A stretch of 63,215 bases of DNA, from the NCBI GenBank assembly GCA_030706785.1, contig JAUZNW010000001.1:1-63215 (forward strand), in the 5' to 3' direction. Shown piece after piece: positions 2,448-50,125 of this stretch; the first letter of the stretch is position 1; each line of letters begins with the position of its first letter. The DNA is from Bacteroidota bacterium. GTDB lineage: Bacteria > Bacteroidota > Bacteroidia > Bacteroidales > VadinHA17. The notes beneath the pieces are model-generated. The model was not told where the DNA came from and ran no database searches. It saw only the letters and a list, made by a program, of their open reading frames with translations. A program made the translations under genes and the position numbers.

Positions 2448-2471
2448 ATTCTCTCTGTTTTATAATGATGA

Positions 2472-4283: not shown

Positions 4284-4330
4284 CTGAAAAATAATTTCAT
4301 TTCTGGGCAAAGTAACTAAGAATCGGCGAA

Positions 4331-16621: not shown

Positions 16622-16699
16622 TCTTCATTTCAGGCATCCCGGGGAGTTTTTTGCAGGAATCATTGCGTGATTCTTTGCTTTTTATCCCGAAAGCGTTGA

Positions 16700-16895
16700 A
16701 CATAATATTTGTTTCTGGCAGGTCTTCTGACTTATCCCGGCTCTGGGAAGCCTTCCCATAGCGCCGATGCGCCACAGTGGCAGGTGTTTCCCAAAGCCTT
16801 CATCACGCTTTTGCGTGACCGGGCATCACAGCAGCGGGTACTGTTGCGGATTCAAACCGCATTCCCTTTTCATGGGTCTGTTGGCCGGATAAAAA
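16700..16895 (-). ncRNA. Cobalamin (B12) riboswitch
   Basis: The minus-strand read contains AAGGGAAUGCGGUUUGAAUCCGCAACAGUACCCGCUGCUGUGA, then GCCACUGUGGCGCAUCGGCGCUAUGGGAAGGC. It also has the B12 box AGUCAGAAGACCUGCC (16717-16732). These match the conserved core of Rfam RF00174 in the right order, upstream of a TonB receptor and btuFCD-like operon. Confidence 0.9.
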
Positions 16896-17035
16896 CATTT
16901 TTATTTTAATAAAGGTCCTTATCAACAGGCCCACACCAGAACAGATCAAAGGTACTTTATTTTCAAAAATGATCAAGTATGGTAAATAAACATTTATTAA
17001 CCATCCTCGAGAAGATGAACAATCCCGGTCTTATG

Positions 17036-26644: not shown

Positions 26645-26818
26645 ATGACCAGCAAAGACATTATTTTATACGCAGTCATAATTGCAGCTGTGGGCTTCAG
26701 CCTTTATAGGAGGTATGTTAAAAGTAAACAAGGAAAACCCGGCAATACCAGCCAGGCCCAGGGTACTTCTTTCCCATCATCGAAAGATGATGAGTATGAA
26801 CCATACTCGAAGAAGTAG
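26645..26818 (+). CDS. Small single-pass membrane protein (57 aa), below the ORF-track length cutoff
   Basis: The ATG at 26645 opens MTSKDIILYAVIIAAVGFSLYRRYVKSKQGKPGNTSQAQGTSFPSSKDDEYEPYSKK, with the stop at 26816-26818. It has one clear TM helix followed by a positively charged and then acidic tail. There is no homology evidence. Confidence 0.4.
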   Translation: MTSKDIILYAVIIAAVGFSLYRRYVKSKQGKPGNTSQAQGTSFPSSKDDEYEPYSKK

Positions 26819-26820
26819 TT

Positions 26821-26915
26821 GGTTATAGGTGATTGGTGATTGGTGATTGGTGATTGGTTGTTGGTTGAAGGATCGAATGTAAAAACCTAATATCCAATAA
26901 CTAATAACCAATATC
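26821..26915. repeat. Heptanucleotide tandem repeat (GGTGATT)x4 with degenerate flanking units, plus an imperfect inverted CCAAT-rich arm
   Basis: 26821-26869 reads ggttata ggtgatt ggtgatt ggtgatt ggtgatt ggttgtt ggttgaa. 26893-26915 (ccaataactaataaccaatatcc) is a degenerate reverse complement of the same unit. It lies between convergent genes. Confidence 0.85.
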
Positions 26916-26919
26916 CTTA

Positions 26920-28209
26920 TCATCTCCTGTTCCTGGAAATAAGATAGCGCATAGGATAGAAGATCTTCTGCAGCAGTCGAAGGTCCTCAGTTATTATTTC
27001 AGCTGTACCCTGCATGTTTTGTGTAAATTCGAGCTTTTTCCCGTAAAGGGTCACCAGGCCTGAAGGAAGTTTAAGCTCTATTATGTAGTTATCACCGGAT
27101 GGGACGAGTGATTTTGAGTTCACTATTCCTCTTACCATACCATATTGCAGGTACGGGAATCCGCTCAGCTTAATGTTCACTTCCTGACCAACTTTAACCT
27201 TACCTGACCTGTGCATCTTAAGGTTTATCCTCCCGATAAAATCTCCGGCATCAAACGGAACTATACTTAAAACCGGTTCATCCTTGGTGACTGTCTGATT
27301 CTCGCTCCAGAATTTTGTAAAAGTCACTATACCAGTCACCGGAGAGATAAGCAGATAGTTATTCTCCCAGATTTTTATCTGGGCTTTGAGGTTCATAAGC
27401 GATTCATTCAGAACAGAATAGTATTTTTCCCTCTCCTGGATTCTGGTGATCTTATAGTCCTGCAGCAATTGTCTTTTTTCAGCCAGTTCGATCGATTTCG
27501 CGGAATGGTCGAGCTTTACCTGCTGAAGATCAATATTCTGCTTGAGGAGTGACTGGCGCGATTTCTCAAGATCACTTTCGGAAAGGACACCGTTAACATG
27601 CAGCATTGAATCCCTTCCGAATTTTCTTTCCTCAAGCAACTGGTTCTCCGCAAAAAGTTCTTCCTTGACCTTCACCTTGCCGATATAAACAAGGATATTG
27701 TCAATTTCCTCAGTGAGAGAGGTGATTTTATTCCCGTAATAATCATTCAGATTATAATTATAGTAGTCCGAAAGGCTTTTCAGGAATGTGCCCCAGAACG
27801 GCTGCAACTCACCAAGCTCAGTAAAGTCCGGAAATCTTGCAAGTACAAGCTTCTCAGGATTGCTGATAGTATCAACCAGCATCTTAAGCCGGTTAACCTC
27901 ACTGATCGATGCTGCGGTCTCCATCACTGCAATCAATCTGCCCGACGTGATACTGTCCTTGTCGTTGACGTACAGGTTTTTGATCCTGCCGGTAATTTTA
28001 GACAGGAGAGTAACGGGGGGATTGACTGTTGTTATTTCGACCTGGGCAGGAACAATATCGGGATACTTAATTAACCATGCCAGGAAAACAATCAAAATGC
28101 ATACGATAAGTATGATGGTACTTCCCCATCTCAGTATCCTTCCCGGAGGGCGTCCCATTATTTCGCTTACAGGCTCTGAGTATACGATATCGTCTCTATT
28201 TTCTTCCAA
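26920..28209 (-). CDS. HlyD-family secretion/membrane-fusion protein (bacteriocin-exporter accessory type)
   Basis: 429 aa. It has an N-terminal cytoplasmic stretch and one TM (WGSTIILIVCILIVFLAWLI). It then has a coiled-coil hairpin region and a C-terminal beta-barrel. The gene is adjacent to and co-directional with the PCAT gene. Confidence 0.8.
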   Translation of the reverse strand: MEENRDDIVYSEPVSEIMGRPPGRILRWGSTIILIVCILIVFLAWLIKYPDIVPAQVEITTVNPPVTLLSKITGRIKNLYVNDKDSITSGRLIAVMETAASISEVNRLKMLVDTISNPEKLVLARFPDFTELGELQPFWGTFLKSLSDYYNYNLNDYYGNKITSLTEEIDNILVYIGKVKVKEELFAENQLLEERKFGRDSMLHVNGVLSESDLEKSRQSLLKQNIDLQQVKLDHSAKSIELAEKRQLLQDYKITRIQEREKYYSVLNESLMNLKAQIKIWENNYLLISPVTGIVTFTKFWSENQTVTKDEPVLSIVPFDAGDFIGRINLKMHRSGKVKVGQEVNIKLSGFPYLQYGMVRGIVNSKSLVPSGDNYIIELKLPSGLVTLYGKKLEFTQNMQGTAEIITEDLRLLQKIFYPMRYLISRNRR

Positions 28210-28217
28210 CTTCAGGT

Positions 28218-30404
28218 TTAATTGCCCAGTTCAAGCTGGTTTTTTACCAGATTAAAATATGCTCCTCTTTTTTCGATAAGGGTCTGATGATCACCGGTCT
28301 CAATTATCTGACCGCTGTCAAGGACCACGATCTTATCAGCATTCCTTACCGTGCTAAGGCGATGCGCTACAATTATTACGGTCTTACCCTTGAAAAATTC
28401 TGCCAGGTTTTCGACTATGACCTTCTCGGTATTTGCATCGAGTGAATTTGTCGCCTCGTCAAAGATCAGGATCTCAGGGTTTTTATAAATTACACGGGCT
28501 ATCAGCAGCCTTTGCTTCTGTCCCTCGCTAAGGCCATGCCCTTCAGAACCGATCTTTGTATTGTAACCGAGAGGAAGTGACTCGATAAGTCCCCTGATAT
28601 TGGCTGTTTCAGCAGCCTTTACCATCATTTCTTCATCTACCGGTGATGAACCTGGTGCTATGTTCCCGGCAATCGTGTCAGGGAACAGATAGCCATCCTG
28701 CATAACAGCCCCGACCTTTTCACGCCATAGCTTCAGACTTATATTAGAGAGACCGGTTTCGCCGACCATTATTTCACCCTTGACCGGCTGATAGAATCCA
28801 AGCAACATTTTCAGAAGCGTTGTCTTTCCACTTCCGCTTACACCCACTACCGCTGTCACCTTATTTTGTTCAATAAGAAGATCTGCGTCCTTCAATGCGA
28901 ATGGGGATCTTGGTCCTTCGTACTGGAACGAAAGATTCCTGACCGTTATGTTCTTGTTTTCAGGCAACCTTCTTACAAGATTCTCAGAATCAGCCTCTTC
29001 GTCTTCCATATTATGGACTTCTGCAAGCCTGTCGAGACTCATTTTTGCATCCTGCGACATCCTGAAGAAACCAATAATCTGACTCACGGGTACATTCATC
29101 TGGCCAATAATGAACTGAACTGCGAGCATCATACCAAGGGTCATGTTCCCTTTAAGGACTGCTGTTGCAGCAACTATAGTGATGAGTATATTCATGACCT
29201 CGCTGATAAATGTGGCTCCTGCTGACTGATATTGTATAAGCCTTAATCCTCTTACCTTCAGACCAAAAAGAGCTGCCTGGTGATATTCCCAGTTCCACCT
29301 CTTACTGAGCTCACTTTGCGTAAGCTTAATCTCCTGCATCCCGTTTATGATGCTGATCAGCTTTGAAACCGAAGCAGACATCTCCTTAAACCGGAGATTA
29401 TCGATCCGTGCACGTGATTTCATGAAGAGGGAAACCCAGAGAATGTACATGGCAGTGCCCACTATGAACAAGGCAACAATCTTAAGGCTGAATATTGCAA
29501 GTACGATGCCGAAAGTAACAAGATTAAAAAAGGAGAACAAGATGCTCAGACTCGCCGAGGTCAGGAATTCCTCTATCCTGTTATTGTCATCAATCCGCTG
29601 CAATATGTCGCCTGTCAGCTTTGAATCGAAGAAAGCTATCGGCAGGGCCATCAGCTTCTGAAGAAATCCTGAAATTATTGCTACGTTCACCCGTGATCCT
29701 ATGTGCAGCAGCAGCCAGCTCCGGATAAACTCGACCGACAATCTCCCGAGGACAAGCGCAAGCTGAGCAAAAAGAATAAGGTAAATAAATCCTATATCGT
29801 TATTGTTCAGACCAATATCTACTATTGATTGTGTAAGGAAAGGAATGATGAGCATTATACAGCTTCCGATCAGAAGACCGATTATCAGCTGTCCCAGATA
29901 TTTGCGATACAGCCTGAAGTAATTCAGGAGGAAGCTGAATCCCTTTTTTGTTTCCTGGTGATCTTCAATATTATAAAGGGCCGGTGTCGGTTCAATTAAC
30001 AGAACCAGTCCCGCCTTTTTACCATCTGCTATGGTGTAGGCCCAGTTTTGCTCAAATTCCTCCCGCGTATATTTTACCAGACCAGTTGCCGGATCAGCAA
30101 CCCAGATCATGCCGTTCTTTATCCTGTAAACGACAGTGAAGTGTCTTTGCTCCCAGTGAACAATACATGGCAGGGTGACTTTTTCCTCAAGAAGCTCAAA
30201 CGGAATCTTAACCCCTAATGTTCTGAATCCCAACGAATCGGCTGCCTCTGAAAGGCCCAGGAAAGATACTCCTCCCCTGGTGATAAAGCATTTCTTCCTT
30301 AAATAATCGATCGGGAAGCTCTTTTTGTAGTAACCCGCAACCATTTTAAGGCATGCAGGTCCGCAATCCATCGCATCATATTGTTTTACAAAGGGAAATA
30401 ACAT
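28218..30404 (-). CDS. Peptidase-C39-domain ABC exporter (PCAT; bacteriocin/peptide cleavage-export transporter)
   Basis: 728 aa. The N-terminal C39 domain has catalytic Cys in QYDAMDCGPACLKMV and His in VHWEQRHFTVVY. It has 6 TM helices. The NBD has Walker A GVSGSGKTT, signature LSEGQKQR and Walker B ILIFDEATNSLD. Confidence 0.92.
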   Translation of the reverse strand: MLFPFVKQYDAMDCGPACLKMVAGYYKKSFPIDYLRKKCFITRGGVSFLGLSEAADSLGFRTLGVKIPFELLEEKVTLPCIVHWEQRHFTVVYRIKNGMIWVADPATGLVKYTREEFEQNWAYTIADGKKAGLVLLIEPTPALYNIEDHQETKKGFSFLLNYFRLYRKYLGQLIIGLLIGSCIMLIIPFLTQSIVDIGLNNNDIGFIYLILFAQLALVLGRLSVEFIRSWLLLHIGSRVNVAIISGFLQKLMALPIAFFDSKLTGDILQRIDDNNRIEEFLTSASLSILFSFFNLVTFGIVLAIFSLKIVALFIVGTAMYILWVSLFMKSRARIDNLRFKEMSASVSKLISIINGMQEIKLTQSELSKRWNWEYHQAALFGLKVRGLRLIQYQSAGATFISEVMNILITIVAATAVLKGNMTLGMMLAVQFIIGQMNVPVSQIIGFFRMSQDAKMSLDRLAEVHNMEDEEADSENLVRRLPENKNITVRNLSFQYEGPRSPFALKDADLLIEQNKVTAVVGVSGSGKTTLLKMLLGFYQPVKGEIMVGETGLSNISLKLWREKVGAVMQDGYLFPDTIAGNIAPGSSPVDEEMMVKAAETANIRGLIESLPLGYNTKIGSEGHGLSEGQKQRLLIARVIYKNPEILIFDEATNSLDANTEKVIVENLAEFFKGKTVIIVAHRLSTVRNADKIVVLDSGQIIETGDHQTLIEKRGAYFNLVKNQLELGN

Positions 30405-30530
30405 TTCCTTACATCCGACCGTTTAGATATGGAAAGTAAAGATATTTATTATTTGATAAAAAACAGCTTACGTTATATACTTAAACAAACCATGCGCTGA
30501 CAGTTTGATACCTAACCTGTCAGGAAATGC

Positions 30531-30538
30531 TATATTTG
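30531..30538 (+). promoter_or_regulatory. Candidate -7 box TATATTTG (TAnnTTTG) for the sigma-factor gene
   Basis: It is an exact match to the Bacteroidota housekeeping -7 consensus, 29 nt upstream of the TTG start at 30567. It overlaps one copy of a TGWCAG repeat. Confidence 0.4.
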
Positions 30539-30566
30539 TCAGTTTATTTGGGAAAAAAATCAGCGA

Positions 30567-31124
30567 TTGTTCCGTAAGATCTCAGATAGCACAATCATTG
30601 ATGGTATCCGTCAACAGGATGATAAGATACTCAACTGGCTTTATGACAACTATCTTCAGACAGTAAGGCATCACGTGCTAAAGAACAGCGGTTCTGAGGC
30701 TGATGTTTCAGATGTGTTCCAGGAATCGATAATCGCTCTTTACAGGCAGATATCGGAGGATGGTTTGAACCTGACCTCCGACCTCAAGGGATATTTTTTC
30801 GGAATCGCGAGGAATATCTGGAGTGCTCAGCTCAGGAAAAAAAACAGAAACACAGAAATTGAAATTGATATACCAGACGAAACCGATAGTGAAGAATCAA
30901 AAAATCCGGTACTCGAGAGAATTGTGAGCCGGGCATTTGCAAAGCTGAACCCGGATGCAAGAATAATACTTACTTTATTTTCTGAGGGTTTTTCCTATCC
31001 TGAGATAGCAGTAAAAATGAATCTCAAGAATGAAACCTATGCACGCCGTAAAAAATATCTCAGCAAGGAAGCTCTGATGGCCTTAATAAAGGAAGATCCT
31101 GAGTACAAGGAATTCCTGGAATGA
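30567..31124 (+). CDS. Sigma-70 family RNA polymerase sigma factor, ECF-like (regions 2 and 4 only)
   Basis: 185 aa. Region 2 is VSDVFQESIIALYRQI ... YFFGIARNIWSAQLRK. Region 4 HTH is SYPEIAVKMNLKNETYARRKKYLSKEAL. It appears to start at TTG, with no in-frame ATG nearby. Confidence 0.8.
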   Translation: MFRKISDSTIIDGIRQQDDKILNWLYDNYLQTVRHHVLKNSGSEADVSDVFQESIIALYRQISEDGLNLTSDLKGYFFGIARNIWSAQLRKKNRNTEIEIDIPDETDSEESKNPVLERIVSRAFAKLNPDARIILTLFSEGFSYPEIAVKMNLKNETYARRKKYLSKEALMALIKEDPEYKEFLE

Positions 31125-34100
31125 GAAGATATCAGGGCGACTATTCCCGAAACAAGAATAATTACAGCACCAATTAACAGGAATATCTGTTTTGACGGGT
31201 AAAGCTGTGAATTGTTCCCGTAAATGACAAGGGATGACCAGAAATAAGGATGTGAGCGCAGCATATCAGCATTCTTCAGGTAGTCGATCCTGGCCTTTCT
31301 CAATGCCGTACTTTTTGTCTCACCCTTCTTCAGATTCCTGTAAAAGTCCTTCACTATCTCGGTTCCTGACCGGTCATCGATTTCCCACATCGACATTATC
31401 ACCGACTGGCTTCCTGCATAGATAAATCCCCTGGCCAGACTTAGTATTCCTTCTCCGGAATGTAACTTCCCTGATCCCGTGTTGCATGAGCTCAGTATCA
31501 CCATCTTGGCCTTCAGAGGAATCCCATAGACTTCATAAGTATTCAGGTTGCCGTCTTCCACTGAGTCTTTTTCCTGATAAAAAAGCATTTTCGAATACAT
31601 GGGGTACTGATCATTAAGGACCGTATGCATTGCAAGATGGATAACGTCATACTTTCCGGCTTCTGACTTAAAAACTGATTCCTTCGCTCCATTATTGATA
31701 CAAAGCTTCCCGTTTGTCAGACTTGTAACAAATTCTGCTTCTATCCTTGCATAAGGGAGATCGCGCAGCTTTGACAATCTTACCTGGCGTAAAATAAGCA
31801 GTGAGTCAACATCAATTGTGCCTGTGTAAACAGGAGCAAATGCTATTACACTGTTGCTAAAATTATTACTCTTTTTCGTGGATTCTGCAAGAAGGGTTGC
31901 AGAGTATGTGTATGAGATCCGGTAATCGTCCATAAGATACGGGATATCCCTGAACTGTGTTTTACCGGCAGGAGCATTACCAGCCGGTATGGCTTCGAAA
32001 GGAATATATGAAAGTATATTATCGGGAGAGATCAGAAGCTTGTCTGATATAAGATATTTTCTGACGGGCTCGAATATTGTCCTGTAAAGAATGCGTCCTG
32101 TCTCCTGAAACTGGGTGAAGCTTGTTCTGGCGCTGGTCAACGGATTTGAAAGCAGATTCCTGAACCTCCTGATGGTTTCAAAAAATCCTGAATCGATTGA
32201 TATTGTAAGCAGCTCCTGGTGCTTTCGGTTCGTAAGGAATATATAAATACAGGTATCAGCAACAACATAATTAAGGTAGTTCGTATTTCTGCCTGTTATT
32301 CTGGGTATATCGTGCGGACCGAGTACACTTGTATTGTATTTTATCTGGTAATATTCGGGATAATTCTTTTCAAGGACATTTATCAGGGAATCCCGTTTTT
32401 GCGTGGCGCTCAGTACAACGTTTTTCCATTCCGAGACGACTGAAGCATCAGTTTTCTTCCCGGCATTCTCTTCTGAAATCATTGCATTGTAGAAACCTAT
32501 TTCCATTTTGAGGCGACGTTCAAGGTCAGCAATTTCAGGAGGAATGTGGAACTGTGTCGCTTTAAGCTCCCTGGTTGATGCCAGCAGGCCTGCAACTTTG
32601 CTTTTTTCTGAATATTCAAAGGCTTTGTCTCTGTATGCTTTATTACCTGTTTGTTTATAGCAAAGGTCAAAATCACGTATTGCATACAGGTATGCATCCC
32701 GGTACCTGTCGCCGAGGATGACCCGGCTGTCTTCCTCGCTGATGTTAATTCTTACCTTCTCAATCAGTCGCACCAGCAGCTCGCTTGTATTAGATGCTGT
32801 CTCAAGAAAATTGTAATATTTGCTTTTACTGTAGAGATCCCAGAGTATCCTGTATTTTGCCTTAAGCACATTTATTGTCCACTGGTCTGCCTCCATCTGA
32901 TCAGGATCGGGATTTCCAAGAGCGGGTAATTTCCCTTTCCCGTTAATCCCGTGGAACAACAACCCCTGAACGACCTCAAGTGCTTTCTCCGCCTCTCCGT
33001 TTCCTGAAAGCGTCAGTGCATATCCCAGGAGAACCTGATCTTTCAATGAAACGTCTTCACTGTGATTGTTTAAATACGAAAGGCATTGTTCATAAAGCCT
33101 AAGTGATTTATTTATATCGATATTGAAAGTTCTGAGGTATTCTGCATAGTTCTTCATAACCTCAAAATATTCTCTTGAATCAGGACCGGAAAAATCCCTG
33201 GCCTTATTTAGAGAATTGATTATCAGGATTTCCCCCTTTCTTATTTTGCCGGCATTTCCGAGTACTATTGCAAAGCTGTTGATCAGGTTGAACGAAAGCG
33301 ATGAATTAGATGATTTTATCAAACTGACCCCCCTGTTAAAATAGTCATCCGATTTCTTATTATTCCCTAAAAAGAAATAGGTGACCGCAAGGGTATTAAG
33401 CAGATTTATGTAATTATCATCTACTCCCAGCGAGAATACCTTGTATACCGATTCGGCTTTCTCGAGATACAGTACCGCCTTGGAATAGTCAGACATCCTT
33501 ACATAGCATGCACCGATACTTGTGTACAGGTTGGCGATATCCGCACCATAGCTTCCCTTGCTGCCGTTTATAAGCTTCAGGGCTGTATTGCCGGTGGCAA
33601 TTGCTTTATTATATTCATTCTGTCCGAAATAAGCTGATACCAGGCTGGAATAACCACTTAGCAGCAAAGGGCTTGATTCGCCGTATAGTTTCTTTTCCAC
33701 TTCCAGGGATTCCAGGGTATATTGTTCCATTTTCCTGTAATCGCCAAGGTTATTATATGCAATCCCCATATTGTAAAGGCATTTTGCAAGAATCTCATCC
33801 TCACTTATCTGTCTCCTGATCGAGGCCGATAACCTGAACCAGTTAATGGCTTCTGAATTTTCCCTCAGGACAAGATAATAAACCCCTATGTAAAACTGTG
33901 AAGCCGATGAAGTCAGGTTATCAATGTTATTACTCTTCAGGATTTTCAGCATCGACTTTACGATTATCCTGGAATTCATAGTGTCGCCTTCGGCAACAGC
34001 AGCTAAAATTTTTGCATTCAGCTTTTCAAGATCCCTCGAAGGATCATCACTCTGGGATCTGTGATCTGTCTCAAACTCCATATCAGAATCATCACTGTTG

Positions 34101-34198
34101 TATGGTATGACATTACTGGCCTGTGTGTCCGAATAATTCCAGCAGGACAGCATGGAGCATACGATCAGGAGCCGCAATATGCGATATAAATAAATCAT
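31037..34198 (-). CDS. Membrane-anchored TPR-CHAT protein (caspase-like Cys protease fold)
   Basis: The ATG at 34198 gives the signal/lipoprotein-like N-terminus MIYLYRILRLLIVCSMLSC. An acidic linker follows, then about 8-10 TPR-like repeats (e.g. AKCLYNMGIAYNNLGDYRKMEQY, ANLYTSIGACYVRMSDYSKAVLY). The C-terminal CHAT domain has His in DVIHLAMHT and Cys in VILSSCNTGSG, followed by GEGILSLARGF. The C-terminal TM helix IFLLIGAVIILVSGIVALI is followed by a basic 35-aa tail. The track start at 34261 is TTG. Confidence 0.85.
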   Translation of the reverse strand: MIYLYRILRLLIVCSMLSCWNYSDTQASNVIPYNSDDSDMEFETDHRSQSDDPSRDLEKLNAKILAAVAEGDTMNSRIIVKSMLKILKSNNIDNLTSSASQFYIGVYYLVLRENSEAINWFRLSASIRRQISEDEILAKCLYNMGIAYNNLGDYRKMEQYTLESLEVEKKLYGESSPLLLSGYSSLVSAYFGQNEYNKAIATGNTALKLINGSKGSYGADIANLYTSIGACYVRMSDYSKAVLYLEKAESVYKVFSLGVDDNYINLLNTLAVTYFFLGNNKKSDDYFNRGVSLIKSSNSSLSFNLINSFAIVLGNAGKIRKGEILIINSLNKARDFSGPDSREYFEVMKNYAEYLRTFNIDINKSLRLYEQCLSYLNNHSEDVSLKDQVLLGYALTLSGNGEAEKALEVVQGLLFHGINGKGKLPALGNPDPDQMEADQWTINVLKAKYRILWDLYSKSKYYNFLETASNTSELLVRLIEKVRINISEEDSRVILGDRYRDAYLYAIRDFDLCYKQTGNKAYRDKAFEYSEKSKVAGLLASTRELKATQFHIPPEIADLERRLKMEIGFYNAMISEENAGKKTDASVVSEWKNVVLSATQKRDSLINVLEKNYPEYYQIKYNTSVLGPHDIPRITGRNTNYLNYVVADTCIYIFLTNRKHQELLTISIDSGFFETIRRFRNLLSNPLTSARTSFTQFQETGRILYRTIFEPVRKYLISDKLLISPDNILSYIPFEAIPAGNAPAGKTQFRDIPYLMDDYRISYTYSATLLAESTKKSNNFSNSVIAFAPVYTGTIDVDSLLILRQVRLSKLRDLPYARIEAEFVTSLTNGKLCINNGAKESVFKSEAGKYDVIHLAMHTVLNDQYPMYSKMLFYQEKDSVEDGNLNTYEVYGIPLKAKMVILSSCNTGSGKLHSGEGILSLARGFIYAGSQSVIMSMWEIDDRSGTEIVKDFYRNLKKGETKSTALRKARIDYLKNADMLRSHPYFWSSLVIYGNNSQLYPSKQIFLLIGAVIILVSGIVALISSHSRNSLYSGSSFIKAIRASLLRYFLRRA

Positions 34199-34448
34199 CA
34201 GAGGTGATCTGATTTTTAGAATTCCCCGCGTAAATATTGCATGTTTATTTAACAAAGCCAATGCAAATATAAAAAATTTGAATGTATATCAATGGTAAGT
34301 AATTGATTACCTTGAAATAACGAATTTTTTGATAAAATATTTGATTTTTCTGTGTCACAAATGGTGTAATACCGACATGTTACAGTGTAATGATCGCAAG
34401 AATTACGAATTACCCGAATTAAGTATCAATGATTAAAACATTAAAGAG

Positions 34449-34586
34449 ATGAAAACCCTGAATTTTGAACCTATCGAAGAAATTTTTGGAGATTACGCTC
34501 TTACTGCGGAAGAAATGATTTGTGTTAAAGGTGGTGATGCCGGAGAACCAATTGTCAAACCAGCTCAGCCGCCGATAAAGATTTGA
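34449..34586 (+). CDS. Double-glycine-leader peptide precursor (45 aa), predicted 16-aa mature peptide DAGEPIVKPAQPPIKI
   Basis: My own translation is MKTLNFEPIEEIFGDYALTAEEMICVKGG/DAGEPIVKPAQPPIKI, with the stop TGA at 34584-34586. The leader ends in an L-x-x-E-E-M-x-x-V-K-G-G motif, typical of substrates of C39 ABC exporters. The ORF is too short for the supplied ORF track. Confidence 0.6.
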   Translation: MKTLNFEPIEEIFGDYALTAEEMICVKGGDAGEPIVKPAQPPIKI

Positions 34587-34604
34587 CAAACCTTTTTTGA
34601 CAGG

Positions 34605-34623
34605 CCTGCTTAAGCGAAGCAGG
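34605..34623 (+). terminator. Stem-loop just downstream of the peptide ORF (weak terminator/attenuator candidate)
   Basis: cctgctt-aagcg-aagcagg forms a 7-bp stem 19 nt after the peptide stop codon. Only a short U-tract (ttcagatt) follows, so termination is probably partial. Confidence 0.4.
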
Positions 34624-34787
34624 TTCAGATTGCAACCCTGTTACCAGGGATTGTTGTCTTGGATTTCGGATACAGGTCTGGACTGATTTTTTCAGCCGGA
34701 CATCGTGTTCATGAGTGCAAATACTGGCACAAGTTGTGCGTATGTATTTGATATATTGAAGTTTGGAATAATTATAAACGCGATATT

Positions 34788-35531
34788 ATGAAAACTATCG
34801 ATTTTTCATACTTCATCGAACGGTATAATGCCGGAGAGATGGACGAAGCTGAGATGCAATGGTTCAGGAAAGAACTAAGGGAAAACCAAAAACTAAGGAA
34901 GGAGGTTGAACTGAGGAATAAAACTGACGATATCCTGAAAAACCAGGATCTGATGAACCTCAGGAACAAGCTCAACGCAATTGAAAAGCAACGGGCTGTT
35001 ACAATGCCTGTGAGGAGAAACCGGCAGCCTGTAATCAAGTATGCCGCCGTAATTGCAGCCCTTATTATATTGGGCAGCCTTGCCCTTTTAACCAACAAAC
35101 GACAGAGTACCGATGAATTGATAGACCGGTACTATAAACCTTATGAGACAGCGTCAGCATCACGATCTGCTGAATTCATAAACAATAGCGATTACAATCT
35201 GGCCGTTGAATACTATAATATCAGGGACTACAGGAACGCTGCAATATATTTCAGCAGAGTTCTTGAAAAAGATCCTGATAACATGCATTCAACACTGCTG
35301 AACGGTATATCAAATTTTGAAATTCAGAATTACTCTGAAGCAAAGCGTTCCTTTTCAAAGGTAATAGACAATAACGACAACTATTATATCGATCATGCCC
35401 AATGGTACCTCGCGATGTGCTACATCCGAACGGATGAAAGAAGCAAGGCTGTCCAGGAGTTGACGTTAATTAAGAATTCGAATACAATCTATACCAAGCC
35501 TGCAAGGAAATTGCTGAGAAACCTCAGGTAA
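34788..35531 (+). CDS. Single-pass anti-sigma-like protein with a periplasmic TPR domain
   Basis: 247 aa. The N-terminal ~85 aa are helical and cytoplasmic (YFIERYNAGEMDEAEMQWFRKELRENQKLRKEVE resembles the N-terminus of Bacteroidota FecR-type anti-sigmas). A positive patch (RRNRQPVIK) precedes the TM helix YAAVIAALIILGSLALL. The C-terminal ~140 aa carry TPRs (AVEYYNIRDYRNAAIYFSRVLEKDPDN). The anti-sigma function is inferred. Confidence 0.65.
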   Translation: MKTIDFSYFIERYNAGEMDEAEMQWFRKELRENQKLRKEVELRNKTDDILKNQDLMNLRNKLNAIEKQRAVTMPVRRNRQPVIKYAAVIAALIILGSLALLTNKRQSTDELIDRYYKPYETASASRSAEFINNSDYNLAVEYYNIRDYRNAAIYFSRVLEKDPDNMHSTLLNGISNFEIQNYSEAKRSFSKVIDNNDNYYIDHAQWYLAMCYIRTDERSKAVQELTLIKNSNTIYTKPARKLLRNLR

Positions 35532-35567
35532 TTGATAAACGGGAAATAGTTACCAACCAATAAAGTA

Positions 35568-36404
35568 ATGTTCAACCTGTCGGGAAATATCAAGGAGGGT
35601 CCGGGAATACCTGAATCAAGGAACCAGGATGAAGCAAAGGTTATGGATCTCTGTAATCAGACCCTGACCAACTGCGCCTCAATTCTGACAGGAATTTCCC
35701 ATGAAATGAGAACGCAAATGAATGCAGTTGTTGCGTTTTCCTTCATGCTTAAAAATAAAGATTACAGTGAAGAGGAAAGAGAAGATTTCAGTAACCAGAT
35801 CTATTCCTCGTGTGAACAAATAATATCACTGTTCGACAATTTTCTTGATTCTGCAATCATTGATACGGGTAATTCAAAGGCAGAACCGGGAATATGCGAT
35901 CCGGACAAACTAATAAACAACTTAATTTCAGAATTCAGGGCTACTTTGAAAAAGGACAGGTACAAGGACCTGATCCTTATGACTGAGAACCAATCGTTGA
36001 GCCCGGCAGAGTGCATCATTGATACAAACAGGCTGACAAGGGTAATTCGTAACCTGTTTGAAAATGCTCTGTCAAACACAAAAGCGGGATATATAAAAGC
36101 CGGCTATTATTTCAGGGATGACAGACTGACTTTTTATATACTCGATTCGGGGCAGGGCTATGCCAAGAACAAAGAATTCCTACAAAGCAGGGATATTGCG
36201 ATCCCTCTTGCCAGGTTCAGTGATACTTATTCGGCAGTCAATCTCGCTCTTACACGCAAGCTTATCCAGTTACTTGATGGATCTGTTTGGATAGAAAACA
36301 ATGGATCAACGGGATCCGGGATCTATTTTTCAATTCCTGCGCCTACCGCAGTATCAGCCGAAAATGTTTTGAACAAATTTTCGAATACCATGAGCACGAT
36401 CTGA
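35568..36404 (+). CDS. Soluble histidine kinase core (DHp plus HATPase_c) without a recognisable sensor domain
   Basis: 278 aa. H-box ISHEMRTQMNAV at about residue 44, N-box RNLFENALSNT, G1 LDSGQG and G2 GSTGSG. There are no TM segments and no adjacent response regulator. Confidence 0.85.
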   Translation: MFNLSGNIKEGPGIPESRNQDEAKVMDLCNQTLTNCASILTGISHEMRTQMNAVVAFSFMLKNKDYSEEEREDFSNQIYSSCEQIISLFDNFLDSAIIDTGNSKAEPGICDPDKLINNLISEFRATLKKDRYKDLILMTENQSLSPAECIIDTNRLTRVIRNLFENALSNTKAGYIKAGYYFRDDRLTFYILDSGQGYAKNKEFLQSRDIAIPLARFSDTYSAVNLALTRKLIQLLDGSVWIENNGSTGSGIYFSIPAPTAVSAENVLNKFSNTMSTI

Positions 36405-36458
36405 TACCAGATGTTCAATTAACCAACCTAGATGTCTGAACAACCCAAGCGTGAGCTG

Positions 36459-36488
36459 AAACAGCTGACCTCCCCGGTCAGCTGTTTT
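36459..36488 (+). terminator. Rho-independent terminator (11-bp stem) after the histidine kinase gene, overlapping the stop of the convergent OmpA-family gene
   Basis: aacagctgacc-tcccc-ggtcagctgtt is followed by ttatttc. Confidence 0.75.
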
Positions 36489-38424
36489 ATTTCTTCAGTC
36501 CTATGATTTTAACTTCAGTCCTTCTGTTGAGCTTCCTGCCTTCATAGGTCACATTATCGCCTACCGGGGATGTATTTCCGTAGCCTTTGTATTTCAGACG
36601 ATCGGATGATATGCCGTTATCAATAAGATAATTAACTACTGAAAGAGCTCTTTTTTCCGACAGTATCTGGTTATGCTCATCAGTGCCCGTGGCATCAGTG
36701 TAACCACCGATCTCAACCTTTATTCCCTTGTTTTCCTTCAGAAGATCGCACAGCTTGTTCAGTTCGGCAAGTGATTCCTTTTTAAGAGTCCAGGAATCAA
36801 CTTCATAGAAGATATTTGCCAGCGACATGCTCTCCCCTATTTTCAGAGGAGATAACCTGATCTTTTTCAGGAATGGTTCCAGTACAGTGTGCTGACCCTC
36901 AAACATAAAATTCTCCGAATAAAACAGATAGCCTTTTTTACTGACATTCAATCCATAATTGTATCCTGATGGCAGGCATACCAGAAAGTTCCCGGCTTCA
37001 TCAGTGGAATTATGTACAACCGTATGCTGCCTTGACAGATTTATCAATTCATACTCAGCGACAAGAGACTGACCGGTTTCCTTATCGGAGACCTTGCCTT
37101 TGAGGTAGGCTACAGGATCAGGCCTTATAGCCTCATAGAGCCTGAATGAGTAAATGTTTTTTCCTGTTTTACCATCCCTGATGGATGAAAAATACGCCTT
37201 CTGGCCGCTTGATTCTATTACAAGACCCATCTCATCGTTGTAGGTATTGATCGGATAGCCAAGATTAACCGGTTCCGACCAGGTGCTGTCATCCTGCATC
37301 CGCGAGAAATAGATATCAAATCCGCCCATTCCCGGCCTGCCGTCCGAAGAAAAATAAAGCGTCTTGCCGTCAAAATGGATAAAAGGTGACATTTCATCAC
37401 CCGGAGTATTTATCTTGTTCCCAAGGTTTCTCGGACGGATCCACTTATTATTACTGTTGAGACGTGAAAACCATAGATCTTTTCCTCCGATACCACCAGG
37501 CCTGTTGCTTGAAAAAAAGAGCATCTGGTCATCAGCGCTGATCGACGGCTGTGATTCCCAGTATTGGGTATTTACAGGACTGCCAAGGTCAACCGGAATA
37601 GTCCATTTACCATGGTTAAAGGCTGAAAAGAAAATATCACAGCTGCCAAGTCCTCCCGGCCTGTTACAACCGGTGAAGAACATATAGGTTCCATCAGATG
37701 ACAAGCTTTGCGCTCCCTCATTATCATCACTGTTAAGAGGGCTTCCGGCATTTACTGCCGTCTGCCATTTATTGCCGGAAAAATAACTGATGTAGAAATC
37801 CTCCAGCCCAGCCTTGCTCAGTCGTCCGTTCTCAACCGGGCGCGGCTGGCGGGTAAATATCATCGTCTGACCATCCGCGGTTATTGACGGCCAGTATTCA
37901 TCATCGGTGGTATTTATCCCGTCTCCCACACTTTCAGGACTGAATGGTACGGGATGCTTAATGGCTTCAACTGCAAACTGGCAGTTCTTAACATTCTTGA
38001 CTGCCAGATCATGGTTCTTCTCGGAAGAGGGCTTCTGTGCCAGGTATATGTTATAGTGACATAGAGCTTTATTATAATCTCCTGACATCATTTCCGCAGT
38101 CGCCATACTGAAAAATACCGGCATGTAAAAAGAGGAATCGATCGATACTGCCGTCTGATAACTTATGGCAGCTTCCGCAAATCTTCGTAGTTTTGACTGC
38201 AGCTCGCCAAGCATCATATAAGCTTCATAAAACCTGTTGTCAGTTTCAATAGCCTGTTTGAAATTTCGCTCTGCACCTGAAAAGTCAAGGTAATCATATG
38301 ACGTCAAACCTTCTTTATAGGCTTTCATCGCTTTTGCAGATGTGGTATGAAATTTCTGTGAGAATCCCTTCTCAGCATTTAAGAAAGCAAAAAAGAATAC
38401 CAGAATGAAAACAAATGATTTCAT
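36487..38424 (-). CDS. OmpA-family protein with TPR, TolB-like beta-propeller repeats, a carboxypeptidase-regulatory-like domain and a C-terminal OmpA domain
   Basis: Signal peptide MKSFVFILVFFFAFLNA from the ATG at 38424. It has repeated W.SQPSISADG / FFSSNRPGG motifs. The C-terminal OmpA motif is GYTDATGTDEHNQILSEKRALSV. The track ORF extends to 38619 but would then overlap queE. Confidence 0.85.
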   Translation of the reverse strand: MKSFVFILVFFFAFLNAEKGFSQKFHTTSAKAMKAYKEGLTSYDYLDFSGAERNFKQAIETDNRFYEAYMMLGELQSKLRRFAEAAISYQTAVSIDSSFYMPVFFSMATAEMMSGDYNKALCHYNIYLAQKPSSEKNHDLAVKNVKNCQFAVEAIKHPVPFSPESVGDGINTTDDEYWPSITADGQTMIFTRQPRPVENGRLSKAGLEDFYISYFSGNKWQTAVNAGSPLNSDDNEGAQSLSSDGTYMFFTGCNRPGGLGSCDIFFSAFNHGKWTIPVDLGSPVNTQYWESQPSISADDQMLFFSSNRPGGIGGKDLWFSRLNSNNKWIRPRNLGNKINTPGDEMSPFIHFDGKTLYFSSDGRPGMGGFDIYFSRMQDDSTWSEPVNLGYPINTYNDEMGLVIESSGQKAYFSSIRDGKTGKNIYSFRLYEAIRPDPVAYLKGKVSDKETGQSLVAEYELINLSRQHTVVHNSTDEAGNFLVCLPSGYNYGLNVSKKGYLFYSENFMFEGQHTVLEPFLKKIRLSPLKIGESMSLANIFYEVDSWTLKKESLAELNKLCDLLKENKGIKVEIGGYTDATGTDEHNQILSEKRALSVVNYLIDNGISSDRLKYKGYGNTSPVGDNVTYEGRKLNRRTEVKIIGLKK

Positions 38425-38431
38425 TCCGAAC

Positions 38432-39061
38432 TCAGGGTATGTGCATGTACTTATGAATCTGAAGAGAGATCCTCCAGACAGGATTCTTCTTGACATAGCT
38501 GACAATTTCCGGAATAATGACTTTGAAACGGCTCCATTCAGGCTGTAAAAAAAGCTTGCATTCCGGCCCGACCATTTTCTTATATCTTTCAGCCTGTTTA
38601 AAATCATCCTGAGTTTCAATTATAACTTTCAGTTCATCAGCCTGTTTGAAAATATTGTCTGACGGAGGCATGTTTTTCTTGGGCGACAGACATATCCAGT
38701 CCCATTTCCCGCTTAATGCGTAAGCTCCTGAAGTCTCTATGAAGGTACTTATTTTTCTCTCCCGGAGCATGGAGCACAAGGTTTCAAGATTCCACATGAG
38801 CGGCTCTCCGCCGGTCACTACAACTGATTTGGCGCCTGATTGTATTGCATGTCCGGCAATGGTTTCAGTTTCAATAAGAGGGAACATTTCAGCATTCCAT
38901 GAAAAACGTGAATCACACCAGTTACAGCCGATATCGCAACCTCCCAGGCGTATAAGCCATGCAGCCTTACCTGCATTAAATCCTTCCCCCTGGATGGTAA
39001 AAAATTCCTCTACCAGGGGTAGCTTTGTACCATCACTCACACCATCCAAAGCTTTTGCCAT
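38432..39061 (-). CDS. queE: 7-carboxy-7-deazaguanine synthase (radical SAM)
   Basis: 209 aa. It has EEFFTIQGEGFNAGKAAWLIRLGGCDIGCNWCDSRF (the CxxxCxxC cluster motif in QueE context). Confidence 0.9.
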   Translation of the reverse strand: MAKALDGVSDGTKLPLVEEFFTIQGEGFNAGKAAWLIRLGGCDIGCNWCDSRFSWNAEMFPLIETETIAGHAIQSGAKSVVVTGGEPLMWNLETLCSMLRERKISTFIETSGAYALSGKWDWICLSPKKNMPPSDNIFKQADELKVIIETQDDFKQAERYKKMVGPECKLFLQPEWSRFKVIIPEIVSYVKKNPVWRISLQIHKYMHIP

Positions 39062-45106: not shown

Positions 45107-45493
45107 TCAGAGTTTTCGTCTTGACGAGGTAAGCTTTTCGATCAACTGATGCGGGAAAATAGGTTTTACGATATAATCATCAAATCCTGATGCAATTATT
45201 CTCTCCCGGTCCCCGAGAAGGCTGTATGCAGTCTGTGCAATGATGATGATATCATTTCTTAACTCCCTTATCTTTTTGGCTGCCCCATAGCCGTCTATTA
45301 CAGGTAGCTGAATGTCCATGAGTATTATATCTATCCCCGGATTTGACTTAACCGCTTCAATTGCTTCCTTCCCATCAACTGCATTTATCAGTGTAGCTCC
45401 AGTTTTCTCAAGTATCTTATTCAGGTAAAGTCGGCTCGAAACATCATCTTCAACAATAAGAATTTTCTTAGTTTTCAGATATTCGTTTTCCAT
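45107..45493 (-). CDS. Stand-alone response regulator receiver domain (CheY-like)
   Basis: 128 aa. It has KILIVEDD, the phospho-acceptor context IILMDIQLP, and a conserved T (AQTA) and K (KP). Confidence 0.9.
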   Translation of the reverse strand: MENEYLKTKKILIVEDDVSSRLYLNKILEKTGATLINAVDGKEAIEAVKSNPGIDIILMDIQLPVIDGYGAAKKIRELRNDIIIIAQTAYSLLGDRERIIASGFDDYIVKPIFPHQLIEKLTSSRRKL

Positions 45494-48994: not shown

Positions 48995-50104
48995 ATGAAG
49001 AAAAAACTAAACCTGGTAATCACGATTTTCCTGATTATTGTACTTGCAGCAATAATCGCCTATCCAAAGGTAAAGCCGCTTTTTGCTGCAAAGTCCCCAA
49101 TGCCAGCTGCTCCTGGTGGTCCCGGCAGAGGACAGGGTGGTTCCATGCAGGGGAGACAGTTACTTAACGTGAGCGGATTTCTCATCAAGCCTGCGCAGCT
49201 TAGCGAACTGGTAAACAGCAACGGAACTTTAAGGCCTGATGAGGAGGTTGATCTTTCTTTCGAGACTTCCGGGAAAATTGTAGGGATTAATTTTACTGAA
49301 GGAAAAAGGGTACAAAAAGGAGATCTTCTCGCGAAGATAAATGATAAGCCATTACAGGCACAGCTTGAGAAACTTGAGGCGCAAATAAAGCTTGTTGAAC
49401 AAAAGGAATTCAGGCAGAGGAGCCTCCTCACAAAGGACGCAATAAGCCAGGAAAGTTATGACCAGATCGAAACAGAACTCCAGACCACCCAGGCTGATAT
49501 TAATCTTGTCAAGGCAATGATTGCTCAAACTGAACTCCGGGCACCGTTTGACGGGATAATCGGTCTTCGGTATGTAAGTGAAGGAAGCTATACTACACCG
49601 TCAACAAAAATTGCCAGGCTTATCAAGATCAAGCCATTAAAGCTCGAGTTCTCAATACCTGAACAATATGCTGATGAAATTAACATCGGTTTCCCTCTTT
49701 CTTTCAAGGTTACCGGTAACAATACAGTTTTTAATGCAAATGTTTATGCAGTTGATCCGAAGATTGAACTTAATACCCGTTCAATCGTAATAAGGGCATT
49801 GTATCCAAACAGGAATGAAGAGCTGAAATCCGGGCGGTATGCTGCAGTCACTCTGCAATTGTCAAAGATCGAAAATACTATTGCCATTCCTACTGAAGCG
49901 CTGGTTGTCGAAATGGAGGGTGAATCGGTGTTTATCTACAAGAAAGGTAAAGCATCGAAGGTTCCCGTTGGAACAGGCCTTCGCACAGAAGATCTTATTC
50001 AGATCGTTAACGGATTGAAATTTGGTGATACGTTGCTTACAACAGGGATACTCCAGTTGCGTCAGTCGCTTCCTGTTGTGCTCGACACACTTATTGTTAA
50101 TTAA
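48995..50104 (+). CDS. RND efflux periplasmic adaptor (membrane fusion protein)
   Basis: 369 aa. It has a signal anchor, a lipoyl/hairpin region (GDLLAKINDKPLQAQLEKLEAQ) and RAPFDGIIG. It lies upstream of the RND pump. Confidence 0.9.
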   Translation: MKKKLNLVITIFLIIVLAAIIAYPKVKPLFAAKSPMPAAPGGPGRGQGGSMQGRQLLNVSGFLIKPAQLSELVNSNGTLRPDEEVDLSFETSGKIVGINFTEGKRVQKGDLLAKINDKPLQAQLEKLEAQIKLVEQKEFRQRSLLTKDAISQESYDQIETELQTTQADINLVKAMIAQTELRAPFDGIIGLRYVSEGSYTTPSTKIARLIKIKPLKLEFSIPEQYADEINIGFPLSFKVTGNNTVFNANVYAVDPKIELNTRSIVIRALYPNRNEELKSGRYAAVTLQLSKIENTIAIPTEALVVEMEGESVFIYKKGKASKVPVGTGLRTEDLIQIVNGLKFGDTLLTTGILQLRQSLPVVLDTLIVN

Positions 50105-50125
50105 TTAACATATAATCAATAAAAT

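Follow-up and report, generated by a model that had tools for sequence, protein, structure and literature searches.

A conserved double-glycine-leader peptide gene in uncultured Bacteroidales as a candidate signal linked to a C39 exporter, periplasmic TPR proteins and an ECF sigma factor

To our knowledge, signalling between cells by means of peptides is in essence a paradigm of Gram-positive bacteria, and our literature searches revealed no such peptide-signalling system described in Bacteroidota. The Gram-positive double-glycine (GG) pheromones, namely ComC/CSP with ComAB and ComDE and plantaricin A with PlnBCD, are short unmodified peptides with a leader of the form L-x-x-x-E-[LM]-x-x-[IV]-x-G-G, a C39-domain ATP-binding cassette (C39-ABC) exporter with an accessory protein, and a peptide gene directly 5' of the sensor genes. 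This study analyzed a 63,215-bp contig of a metagenome-assembled genome (MAG) labelled 'Bacteroidota bacterium' (the whole stretch is called the window below), in which a 45-codon gene at 34449..34586 on the plus strand encodes a peptide with such a leader. Its sequence and surroundings suggest that it shares all of these features with the Gram-positive pheromones, and autoinduction would be expected here also. The locus differs from them in that it belongs to a diderm member of the Bacteroidales and has neither a polytopic HPK10-type kinase nor a LytTR regulator. Moreover, the candidate sensors are periplasmic tetratricopeptide repeat (TPR) domains, the output is probably a sigma factor of the extracytoplasmic function (ECF) type, and the peptide is rich in Pro and has a C-terminal motif that is fixed.

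For the sensor side, three other systems were compared. In the DegS-RseA-sigmaE pathway, a periplasmic protease that has bound a free C-terminal motif cuts an anti-sigma factor with one membrane pass, which sets an ECF sigma factor free. This order of events, from a free C-terminal peptide motif through a periplasmic protease to the cutting of an anti-sigma factor, may be shared by analogy; however, E. coli has a PDZ sensor, a serine protease and the C-termini of misfolded outer-membrane proteins, and no dedicated secreted peptide. DegS of E. coli is activated by C-terminal peptides (PMC10028731). DdvA/DdvS comprises a periplasmic TPR-CHAT protein fused to an anti-sigma domain, the signal of which is unknown, and CHAT has been proposed to act as a site-1 protease on the juxtamembrane linker (PMC11506125). 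Our locus shares with DdvA/DdvS an ECF sigma factor paired with a periplasmic TPR-CHAT protein of the separase/craspase type with a His-Cys dyad. In contrast to DdvA, the sensor is split here into two proteins, one with an anti-sigma-like domain, a transmembrane (TM) helix and three TPRs (named TPR247, a 247-aa TPR membrane protein encoded at 34788-35531 on the plus strand) and one with a signal peptide, the TPR-CHAT part and a C-terminal TM helix; furthermore, Zn ligands and a defence island are both absent, and a dedicated peptide and exporter are encoded alongside. Because of this split architecture and the missing zinc anti-sigma domain, we regard the sensor side as working like DdvA/DdvS without being a member of it. 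In the type III-E craspase, Csx29 cleaves Csx30 and thereby frees an ECF-like sigma factor, CASP-sigma (PMC10028731). A TPR-CHAT protease acting on a sigma-factor inhibitor is the feature that may be shared by analogy, whereas the craspase is cytoplasmic, is activated by RNA through Cas7-11, and has no peptide ligand or exporter.

Two further systems resemble the peptide side. In MibX/MibW, an exported lantibiotic peptide induces its own production through an ECF sigma/anti-sigma pair (PMC4973701); this system is actinobacterial, its lantibiotic is heavily modified, and it has no TPR or CHAT component. Bacteroidetocins and the precursors of GG-motif peptides that are ribosomally synthesised and post-translationally modified (RiPPs) share with our locus the Bacteroidales host, the GG leader and export by a peptidase-containing ATP-binding cassette transporter (PCAT) (PMC10352776), but they are longer toxins or belong to accessory clusters with modification enzymes, whereas the present peptide has 16 aa, is Pro-rich, and occurs at a fixed locus among signalling genes. 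The reading that we prefer, and to which we give an even chance, is that the peptide is an exported signal that the neighbouring TPR proteins would detect in the periplasm and that would feed back through the ECF sigma factor. It is probable that the flanking ECF sigma factor, TPR-CHAT protein, TPR247 and histidine kinase give the peptide its meaning.

The precursor gene and its peptide family

The precursor gene runs from an ATG start through 45 codons to a TGA stop, and its translation is MKTLNFEPIEEIFGDYALTAEEMICVKGG followed by DAGEPIVKPAQPPIKI. Codons 1-29 (34449-34535) form a leader of 29 residues, the C-terminal end of which is LTAEEMICVKGG, and codons 30-45 (34536-34583) form the predicted mature peptide, or core, DAGEPIVKPAQPPIKI. 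A comparison of the leader with the PCAT-substrate consensus revealed L-12, T-11, E-8, M-7, V-4, G-2, and G-1, and L18, E22, M23, G28, and G29 were invariant in 67 sequences. Judged by these residues, the leader is a double-glycine leader of the PCAT-substrate type. A preliminary description of this DNA had proposed the 45-codon GG-leader open reading frame (ORF) at this position; its translation proved exact and its leader fits the PCAT consensus, and the mature peptide that it had predicted, with 16 aa, four Pro, no Cys and no net side-chain charge, was confirmed.

A word-indexed search of 5.8 billion proteins identified 66 full-length homologues with 56-91% identity, and an exhaustive hidden Markov model (HMM) search of 1.84 billion cluster representatives (50% identity, E <= 0.001) identified a family of 99 clusters. 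In a codon alignment of 26 distinct peptide genes, the ratio of nonsynonymous to synonymous polymorphism (pN/pS) was 0.37 for the whole gene, which indicates purifying selection, and the invariant Pro, Gly, and Leu positions each used 3-4 synonymous codons. This synonymous variety at invariant residues, together with the pN/pS, shows that selection acts on the protein and not on the DNA. These comparisons indicate that the 45-codon ORF is a real coding gene. Its shortness and its apparent absence from the source annotation would also suit a chance frame or a merely regulatory upstream ORF; this explanation, however, is effectively refuted by the 99 clusters, the pN/pS, the synonymous variation, the invariant GG, and the presence of a PCAT in every sufficiently long locus, and we consider its probability negligible. 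The preliminary description had also expected the ORF and its GG to be conserved in relatives, and both were found at syntenic positions in all readable loci.

The gene had further been described as unannotated. In an NCBI-derived protein collection, the TPR and CHAT proteins of the window were found at 100% identity and the best match of the peptide was 91% identical; the absence of the peptide from a collection that holds its neighbours is consistent with an unannotated gene in the source record. No curated model for the window peptide was found in NCBIfam (E <= 1), Pfam, or PADLOC, a result for which such short models have little power, and two relatives of the peptide yielded sub-threshold Mersacidin matches in Pfam. 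Full-text literature searches found no account of the peptide family or of this combination of genes, and the family goes unmentioned in a survey of GG-motif precursors from Bacteroidales (PMC10352776). The peptide represents a new family, and its 99 clusters have apparently been overlooked by annotation because the gene has only 45 codons.

We further analyzed 211 distinct cores. Their median length was 16 aa, Pro accounted for 25% of residues, Cys occurred in 9 of the 211, and the net charge was mostly -2 to 0. Ile was the last residue in 81% of the cores. Counted from the C-terminus, the register was P(-12) I(-11) x K(-9) P(-8) x x P(-5) P(-4) [IV](-3) [KR](-2) I(-1), which gives the scaffold (D/E)-P-I-x-K-P-x-x-P-P-[IV]-[KR]-I with a free C-terminus, and core length varied only in the acidic, Gly-rich stretch directly after the cleavage site. 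The pN/pS of the core was 0.34 and that of the leader was 0.40, so the core is at least equally constrained. The expectation of a conserved leader and a variable core, which had been put forward in the preliminary description, was thus not borne out, and a C-terminally fixed scaffold was found in its place. Such a conserved scaffold is unlike a bacteriocin.

These properties bear on whether the peptide is an effector, that is, an unmodified microcin-like or proline-rich antimicrobial-like toxin, or another effector, the production of which would be controlled by the ECF, anti-sigma, and CHAT proteins upon some other trigger, for instance phage, competitors, or stress at the envelope. Peptides that are proline-rich and have a defined C-terminus may act as antimicrobials, as in the apidaecin type. 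A GG leader with PCAT and HlyD proteins is the classic export route of class II bacteriocins and microcins and is used by Bacteroidales for bacteroidetocins (PMC10352776), and DdvA-type modules respond to external threats (PMC11506125). However, the core has approximately 16 aa, is neutral to anionic and Cys-free, and is too Pro-rich for an amphipathic helix; no immunity-like gene adjoins it, and the sole small membrane ORF nearby (26645-26818) stays on the side of the DUF349 gene. The single copy, the fixed locus, the purifying selection, and the conserved scaffold also contrast with the patchy, diversifying nature of toxin loci. Class II bacteriocins have 25-60 or more aa, are cationic or amphipathic, often carry a disulfide, and come with an immunity gene and a patchy distribution, and we found none of this here. 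We consider the effector explanation quite improbable, and if the peptide were a small toxin under stress control, the locus would be of moderate interest only.

The evidence agrees better with a signal than with a bacteriocin, since the gene is single-copy, lies at one syntenic chromosomal locus, and has no neighbouring immunity gene; the absence of an immunity gene, asserted in the preliminary description, was upheld for the genes adjoining the peptide. The proposal of a signalling peptide in place of a bacteriocin or RiPP therefore stood as the better fit, with the role of a pheromone continuing to be an inference.

The locus and the predicted exporter

The peptide gene belongs to a module that spans 26920-36404 (9.5 kb). 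The gene order at the locus is CTP synthase, DUF349, a small ORF, HlyD (minus strand), C39-ABC (minus), ECF sigma (plus), TPR-CHAT (minus), peptide (plus), TPR247 (plus), a 278-aa histidine kinase (plus), a PorE-like OmpA protein (minus), QueE (minus), and 5'-nucleotidase. Synteny was examined in 27 species-level genome loci, in metagenome loci of at least 6 kb, and in one distant HMM match. The module order was kept, with minor gaps, in 27 of 27 genome loci and in all metagenome loci of at least 6 kb, which together gave more than 60 readable loci. The peptide-bearing genomes, 27 at species level, are all MAGs of uncultured Bacteroidales, some of them labelled Rikenellaceae. Three further loci were chosen solely through CHAT homologues (49-53% identity), and all three carried a GG peptide of 44-46 aa at the same place.

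A regular-expression scan of all short ATG ORFs in the 63-kb window revealed this ORF as the sole convincing GG-leader candidate; the gene is therefore single-copy. The peptide family was not found in any other context: the genome scan, the metagenome scan, and the look-ups of the distant HMM match and of the CHAT homologues all led to the one syntenic locus. Among the TPR247 and CHAT homologues, the best 120 matches listed were all at least 49-58% identical. As far as these sequences reveal, the family appears to be restricted to a single clade and, within it, to a single chromosomal locus that is inherited vertically, a pattern that argues against a mobile toxin cassette.

The exporter gene (28218..30404, minus strand) lies 4 kb upstream of the peptide gene and encodes a PCAT with a C39 domain, a six-TM domain, and an ATPase. 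Domain searches matched Peptidase_C39 (E = 1.6e-35), ABC_membrane, and ABC_tran, and the catalytic residues Q8, C14, H88, and D104 of the C39 domain were invariant in 48 homologues. Its HlyD-family membrane-fusion partner (26920..28209, minus strand) was identified by domain match and synteny. The C39 exporter and HlyD protein that had been noted 4 kb from the peptide are thus corroborated, and the PCAT is predicted both to cut off the leader and to export the peptide. An RND efflux operon, with genes for a membrane-fusion protein, an AcrB-type pump, and a TolC-like outer-membrane factor, lies 17 kb away (48995-54476, plus strand). Among the window ORFs that were scanned, its TolC-like gene (53154-54476) alone was identified as coding for an outer-membrane channel, and this channel could in principle serve the PCAT.

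Two other interpretations of the locus were examined and rejected. A defence-system reading failed because no PADLOC system was matched. A RiPP reading failed because the only domains in the module were HlyD, C39-ABC, sigma, TPR, CHAT, and kinase, with no modification enzyme. The preliminary description had stated that no radical-SAM gene lies nearby. This is inexact, as a QueE-like radical-SAM gene is present at 38432-39061 (minus strand), 3.8 kb off and among housekeeping genes; it matches only QueE of the queuosine pathway, below the NCBIfam cut-offs, and no RiPP maturases. The module itself contains no modification enzyme, so the inference drawn from that statement stands.

Several other features of the surroundings were observed. 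No small membrane ORF that could be a candidate for immunity flanks the peptide at the locus. Nearly all loci have, between DUF349 and HlyD, a conserved 57-aa single-TM ORF (in the window at 26645-26818, plus strand; MTSKDIILYAVIIAAVGFSLYRRYVK...) with 32-67% identity. In one relative, L114, three genes are inserted between HlyD and this small ORF (15300-17680), encoding an fn3-like protein, a Peptidase_C14 (caspase-family) protein, and a DUF5683 protein; the 57-aa ORF remains on the DUF349 side there and is therefore probably outside the peptide module, and the Peptidase_C14 insertion places a second caspase-type gene next to the module. Just 3' of the HlyD stop codon, at approximately 26830-26880, a 7-nt unit is repeated in tandem (CAATCAC four times on the minus strand). 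At the other end of the module, 36487-38619 (minus strand) encodes a TPR/PD40/OmpA protein with similarity to PorE (type IX secretion) and to the CHU_0125 family, at approximately 320 bits against cut-offs of 600-620. Farther away, two paralogues of the aconitase family (594 and 612 aa) are encoded in tandem at 663-4310 (minus strand), and an AraC-type regulator comes next.

TPR proteins, sigma factor, and kinase flanking the peptide

TPR247 (34788..35531, plus strand), for which an AlphaFold2 model with a pLDDT of 79 was obtained, is predicted to be a single-pass membrane protein with a four-helix cytoplasmic N-terminal domain, a TM helix at approximately residues 83-103, a disordered periplasmic linker, and a periplasmic module of three TPRs with a capping helix. 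The N-terminal domain is its most conserved part and contains the motif YNAGEMDEAEMQWFRKEL (YxxGEMxxxExxxFxxxL), which is typical of anti-sigma domains. NF052375 ('anti-sigma factor') was weakly matched by 20 of 43 TPR247 homologues, with a best E of 0.002, and was the sole recurrent non-TPR family. Foldseek searches with the model were dominated by TPR matches, including YbgF and the TPR modules of the Hop, CHIP, and SycD types, which bind C-terminal peptides. An invariant R126-S127 lies in the low-confidence (disordered) periplasmic linker, at residues 123-130 and approximately 25 residues past the TM helix, and is a candidate protease cleavage site. These features make TPR247 a candidate anti-sigma factor, a candidate peptide receptor, or both.

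The TPR-CHAT gene (31037..34198, minus strand) is divergent from the peptide gene and encodes 1053 aa with a CHAT domain (E = 4e-55) and TPRs. In all homologues the N-terminus is hydrophobic and signal-like, and basic residues follow a TM helix at the C-terminus; most of the protein is therefore predicted to lie in the periplasm, with a cytoplasmic part of about 5 residues. The caspase-type dyad H858/C905 was invariant in the CHAT homologues. An AlphaFold2 model (mean pLDDT 76) was searched with Foldseek against 350,542 PDB chains. The top match was DdvA (8rot_A), the transmembrane anti-sigma factor of Myxococcus xanthus (E = 3.5e-11), followed by Csx29 of type III-E CRISPR and separase. The global TM-scores of these fold matches were low (0.19-0.30), probably owing to differing domain orientations in long multi-domain proteins. 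PDB sequence searches with TPR247 and CHAT returned generic TPR matches only, and the link to DdvA comes solely from the fold search.

The end of the CHAT ORF was also inspected. The window ORF does not have the stop codon that nearly all homologues have after the C-terminal TM helix (directly after ...YRKSR); it is approximately 25 codons longer, so that it shares 88 nt at its 3' end (31037-31124) with the convergent sigma gene. In the homologues, the same frame after the CHAT stop continues with similar residues (SLYSGSS...LLRYF).

The peptide and CHAT genes are divergent neighbours that share one conserved intergenic region, and this arrangement would also suit a peptide that is a partner of the CHAT protein and not a diffusible signal, either as a securin-like pseudosubstrate or as a substrate that this clan-CD enzyme trims or ligates. 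Separase-family proteases are regulated by bound pseudosubstrates (PMC11506125), and the conserved acidic residues after the GG and the fixed C-terminus could be recognition elements. However, a dedicated exporter would be superfluous for a purely periplasmic inhibitor, and we rate this partnership as speculation, less probable still than a toxin.

The sigma gene (30567..31124, plus strand) encodes an ECF-type sigma factor of 185 aa, which matched TIGR02937 with 65 bits against a cut-off of 42.9. Its start codon was TTG in 51 of 56 loci and TTA at the aligned position in the other five; this conserved weak TTG start might hold sigma levels low.

A soluble histidine kinase of 278 aa (HisKA and HATPase_c) is encoded at 35568..36404 on the plus strand and starts 36 nt after the TPR247 gene. 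It was present in every locus and has no TM or sensor domain. The main mechanistic alternative to our preferred reading is that the peptide binds the periplasmic TPRs of TPR247, the cytoplasmic domain of which controls this kinase as the other half of a split sensor, with a response regulator elsewhere, for example the receiver at 45107-45493, as the output. The peptide, TPR247, and kinase genes are co-directional, in an order that would parallel comCDE or plnABCD, and a strong terminator-like hairpin is found only after the kinase (36457-36489). That the kinase lacks a TM or sensor domain of its own and is conserved in every locus also favours this arrangement, as does the receiver-only protein (128 residues, receiver domains only), which is syntenic and 9 kb away. 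Nevertheless, the phospho-acceptor His45 was replaced by Arg in 24 of 65 homologues, mostly in the clade with the 'VKGG' leader, and the Mg-ATP residue Asn166 by Ile or Leu in 13 of 65, yet the peptide, TPR247, and the element upstream of the peptide gene are conserved in those lineages. The window copy keeps both His and Asn, and the H-box flanks S44, E46, R48, and T49 and the G-boxes were invariant; from its sequence, the kinase resembles a conserved pseudokinase evolving inside the module. Furthermore, the module (26920-36404) contains no DNA-binding response regulator, and a split sensor kinase would leave the sigma factor and the CHAT protease unexplained. We consider this alternative unlikely.

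Upstream element, proposed feedback circuit, and implications

We also examined the sequences around the peptide gene. A conserved bipartite, partly palindromic element that resembles a promoter or an operator, TGTCACAAA-N11-CGACATGTTACA, lies at 34353..34384 on the plus strand, approximately 65-95 nt 5' of the start codon. Its near-invariant core is TGTCACAAA-N11-CGACATG (34353-34379), and the conserved block extends to 34384. The element occurred once in the 63-kb window and once per locus in 106 of 112 loci, always 5' of the peptide and nowhere else in the module; no second copy was found in the module or the window. It was also present in the loci chosen through the CHAT protein. The alignment revealed two other conserved blocks on the plus strand, GAATTACCCGA (34407-34417) and AGTATCAATGAT (34422-34433), which are probably the 5' untranslated region or a second regulatory site. 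An Rfam scan of the leader region upstream of the peptide matched no family, apart from a chance snoRNA match far under the threshold.

The Bacteroidetes housekeeping consensus for the -7 box is TAnnTTTG. The promoter of the sigma gene has the -7 box TATATTTG (30531-30538), and the strand of the exporter has a TAnnTTTA-type box, TAAATATCTTTAC (30436-30448). With such boxes, both the exporter and the sigma genes look constitutively expressed. The element upstream of the peptide does not contain a TAnnTTTG box. The peptide/TPR247/kinase operon may rely on another factor, for which the adjacent ECF sigma factor is the obvious candidate.

A 7-bp hairpin (34605..34623, plus strand; CCTGCTT-AAGCG-AAGCAGG) begins 19 nt after the stop codon of the peptide and has no T-run. 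It was found in nearly all homologous loci with differing stem sequences (96 distinct sequences), so that the structure and not the sequence is conserved. The mean best minimum free energy was -9.5 kcal/mol, compared with -6.4 kcal/mol for dinucleotide shuffles (p = 1e-13). The homologous hairpins had a median start 13 nt past the stop codon, and a T-rich tail followed in only 13%. The hairpin is probably a partial terminator or a stabiliser of the RNA 3' end between the peptide gene and the two downstream genes. The preliminary description had reported this hairpin and suggested that it raises the proportion of peptide transcript; the hairpin is present and structurally conserved, it is no canonical terminator, and the role in stoichiometry is plausible.

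We propose the following circuit. The precursor would be made from a gene that, by its sequence and comparisons, is real and under purifying selection. The C39-ABC/HlyD exporter would then remove the 29-residue leader after the Gly-Gly and export DAGEPIVKPAQPPIKI, a step for which the sequence evidence is strong. The functional unit would be the C-terminal 12-13 residues with their free carboxylate, probably as an extended polyproline-like ligand, which would be recognised in the periplasm by the three-TPR domain of TPR247, by the TPR arm of the membrane-anchored TPR-CHAT protease, or by both. By analogy with DdvA/DdvS, Csx29-Csx30-CASP-sigma, and DegS-RseA, this binding would inactivate the anti-sigma-like TPR247, possibly through cleavage of its linker by CHAT at the invariant Arg-Ser and subsequent intramembrane proteolysis, and the ECF sigma factor would be released. 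The sigma factor would then drive the non-housekeeping element 5' of the peptide/TPR247/kinase operon in a positive feedback, and the hairpin would let the peptide mRNA outnumber the downstream sensor mRNA. For the particular version in which the peptide as a ligand activates the periplasmic caspase-like CHAT as a site-1 protease on a separate TPR anti-sigma factor, and thereby releases the ECF sigma factor, our estimate is low, and we put it forward tentatively.

Rates of evolution provide suggestive support for sensing by the TPR proteins. Evolution is fastest in the TPR arm of CHAT, with a mean pairwise distance of 0.54, and in the core, with 0.50; the flanking housekeeping proteins have distances of 0.29-0.33. 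With housekeeping divergence controlled, core distance correlated with that of the two TPR proteins (partial r 0.21-0.28, p of approximately 0.01) and not with that of the exporter. Leader distance correlated with that of C39/ABC (partial r of approximately 0.5) and equally with that of the ECF sigma factor and the kinase, and clade structure may therefore explain the leader correlation.

Several observations weigh against the proposed circuit. Residue-level mutual information between the peptide and TPR247 or CHAT was no higher than in the PorE or ABC controls, so that clade structure may be what the distance correlations reflect. In the bipartite element, TGTCAC and CGAC are 14 nt apart, which is shorter than the 16-17 nt usual in ECF promoters, and because the element is partly palindromic, it could instead serve a dimeric regulator as its operator. 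With a promoter of the housekeeping type and without a copy of the element, the sigma gene shows no classical autoregulation. The anti-sigma assignment of TPR247 is weak (E of approximately 0.002-0.005), no Cys/His Zn ligands are present, and the TPR247 gene is not adjacent to the sigma gene. Once exported past both membranes, a 1.7-kDa peptide could reach TPR domains in the periplasm only by passing back through the outer membrane; the module holds no outer-membrane partner or importer. The kinase is left without a role in the circuit. Finally, a single inherited locus makes the co-occurrence of its genes weaker evidence of linkage than repeated independent association, and all source organisms are uncultured MAGs.

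If the version with CHAT as a ligand-activated site-1 protease is true, a diderm bacterium would practise quorum sensing by peptide, or autocrine sensing, through caspase-like proteolysis, and this would be the first DdvA-like system with a ligand that can be read from the genome. A linked peptide ligand would open the activation of DdvA-like proteases to direct in vitro testing. The locus is a concrete candidate for a new signalling route, as it combines a 16-residue peptide and its exporter with two possible receptors in the periplasm, a sigma factor, and one conserved promoter as the target. Even if the mechanism differs, the family represents a new and strongly conserved class of GG-leader peptides.

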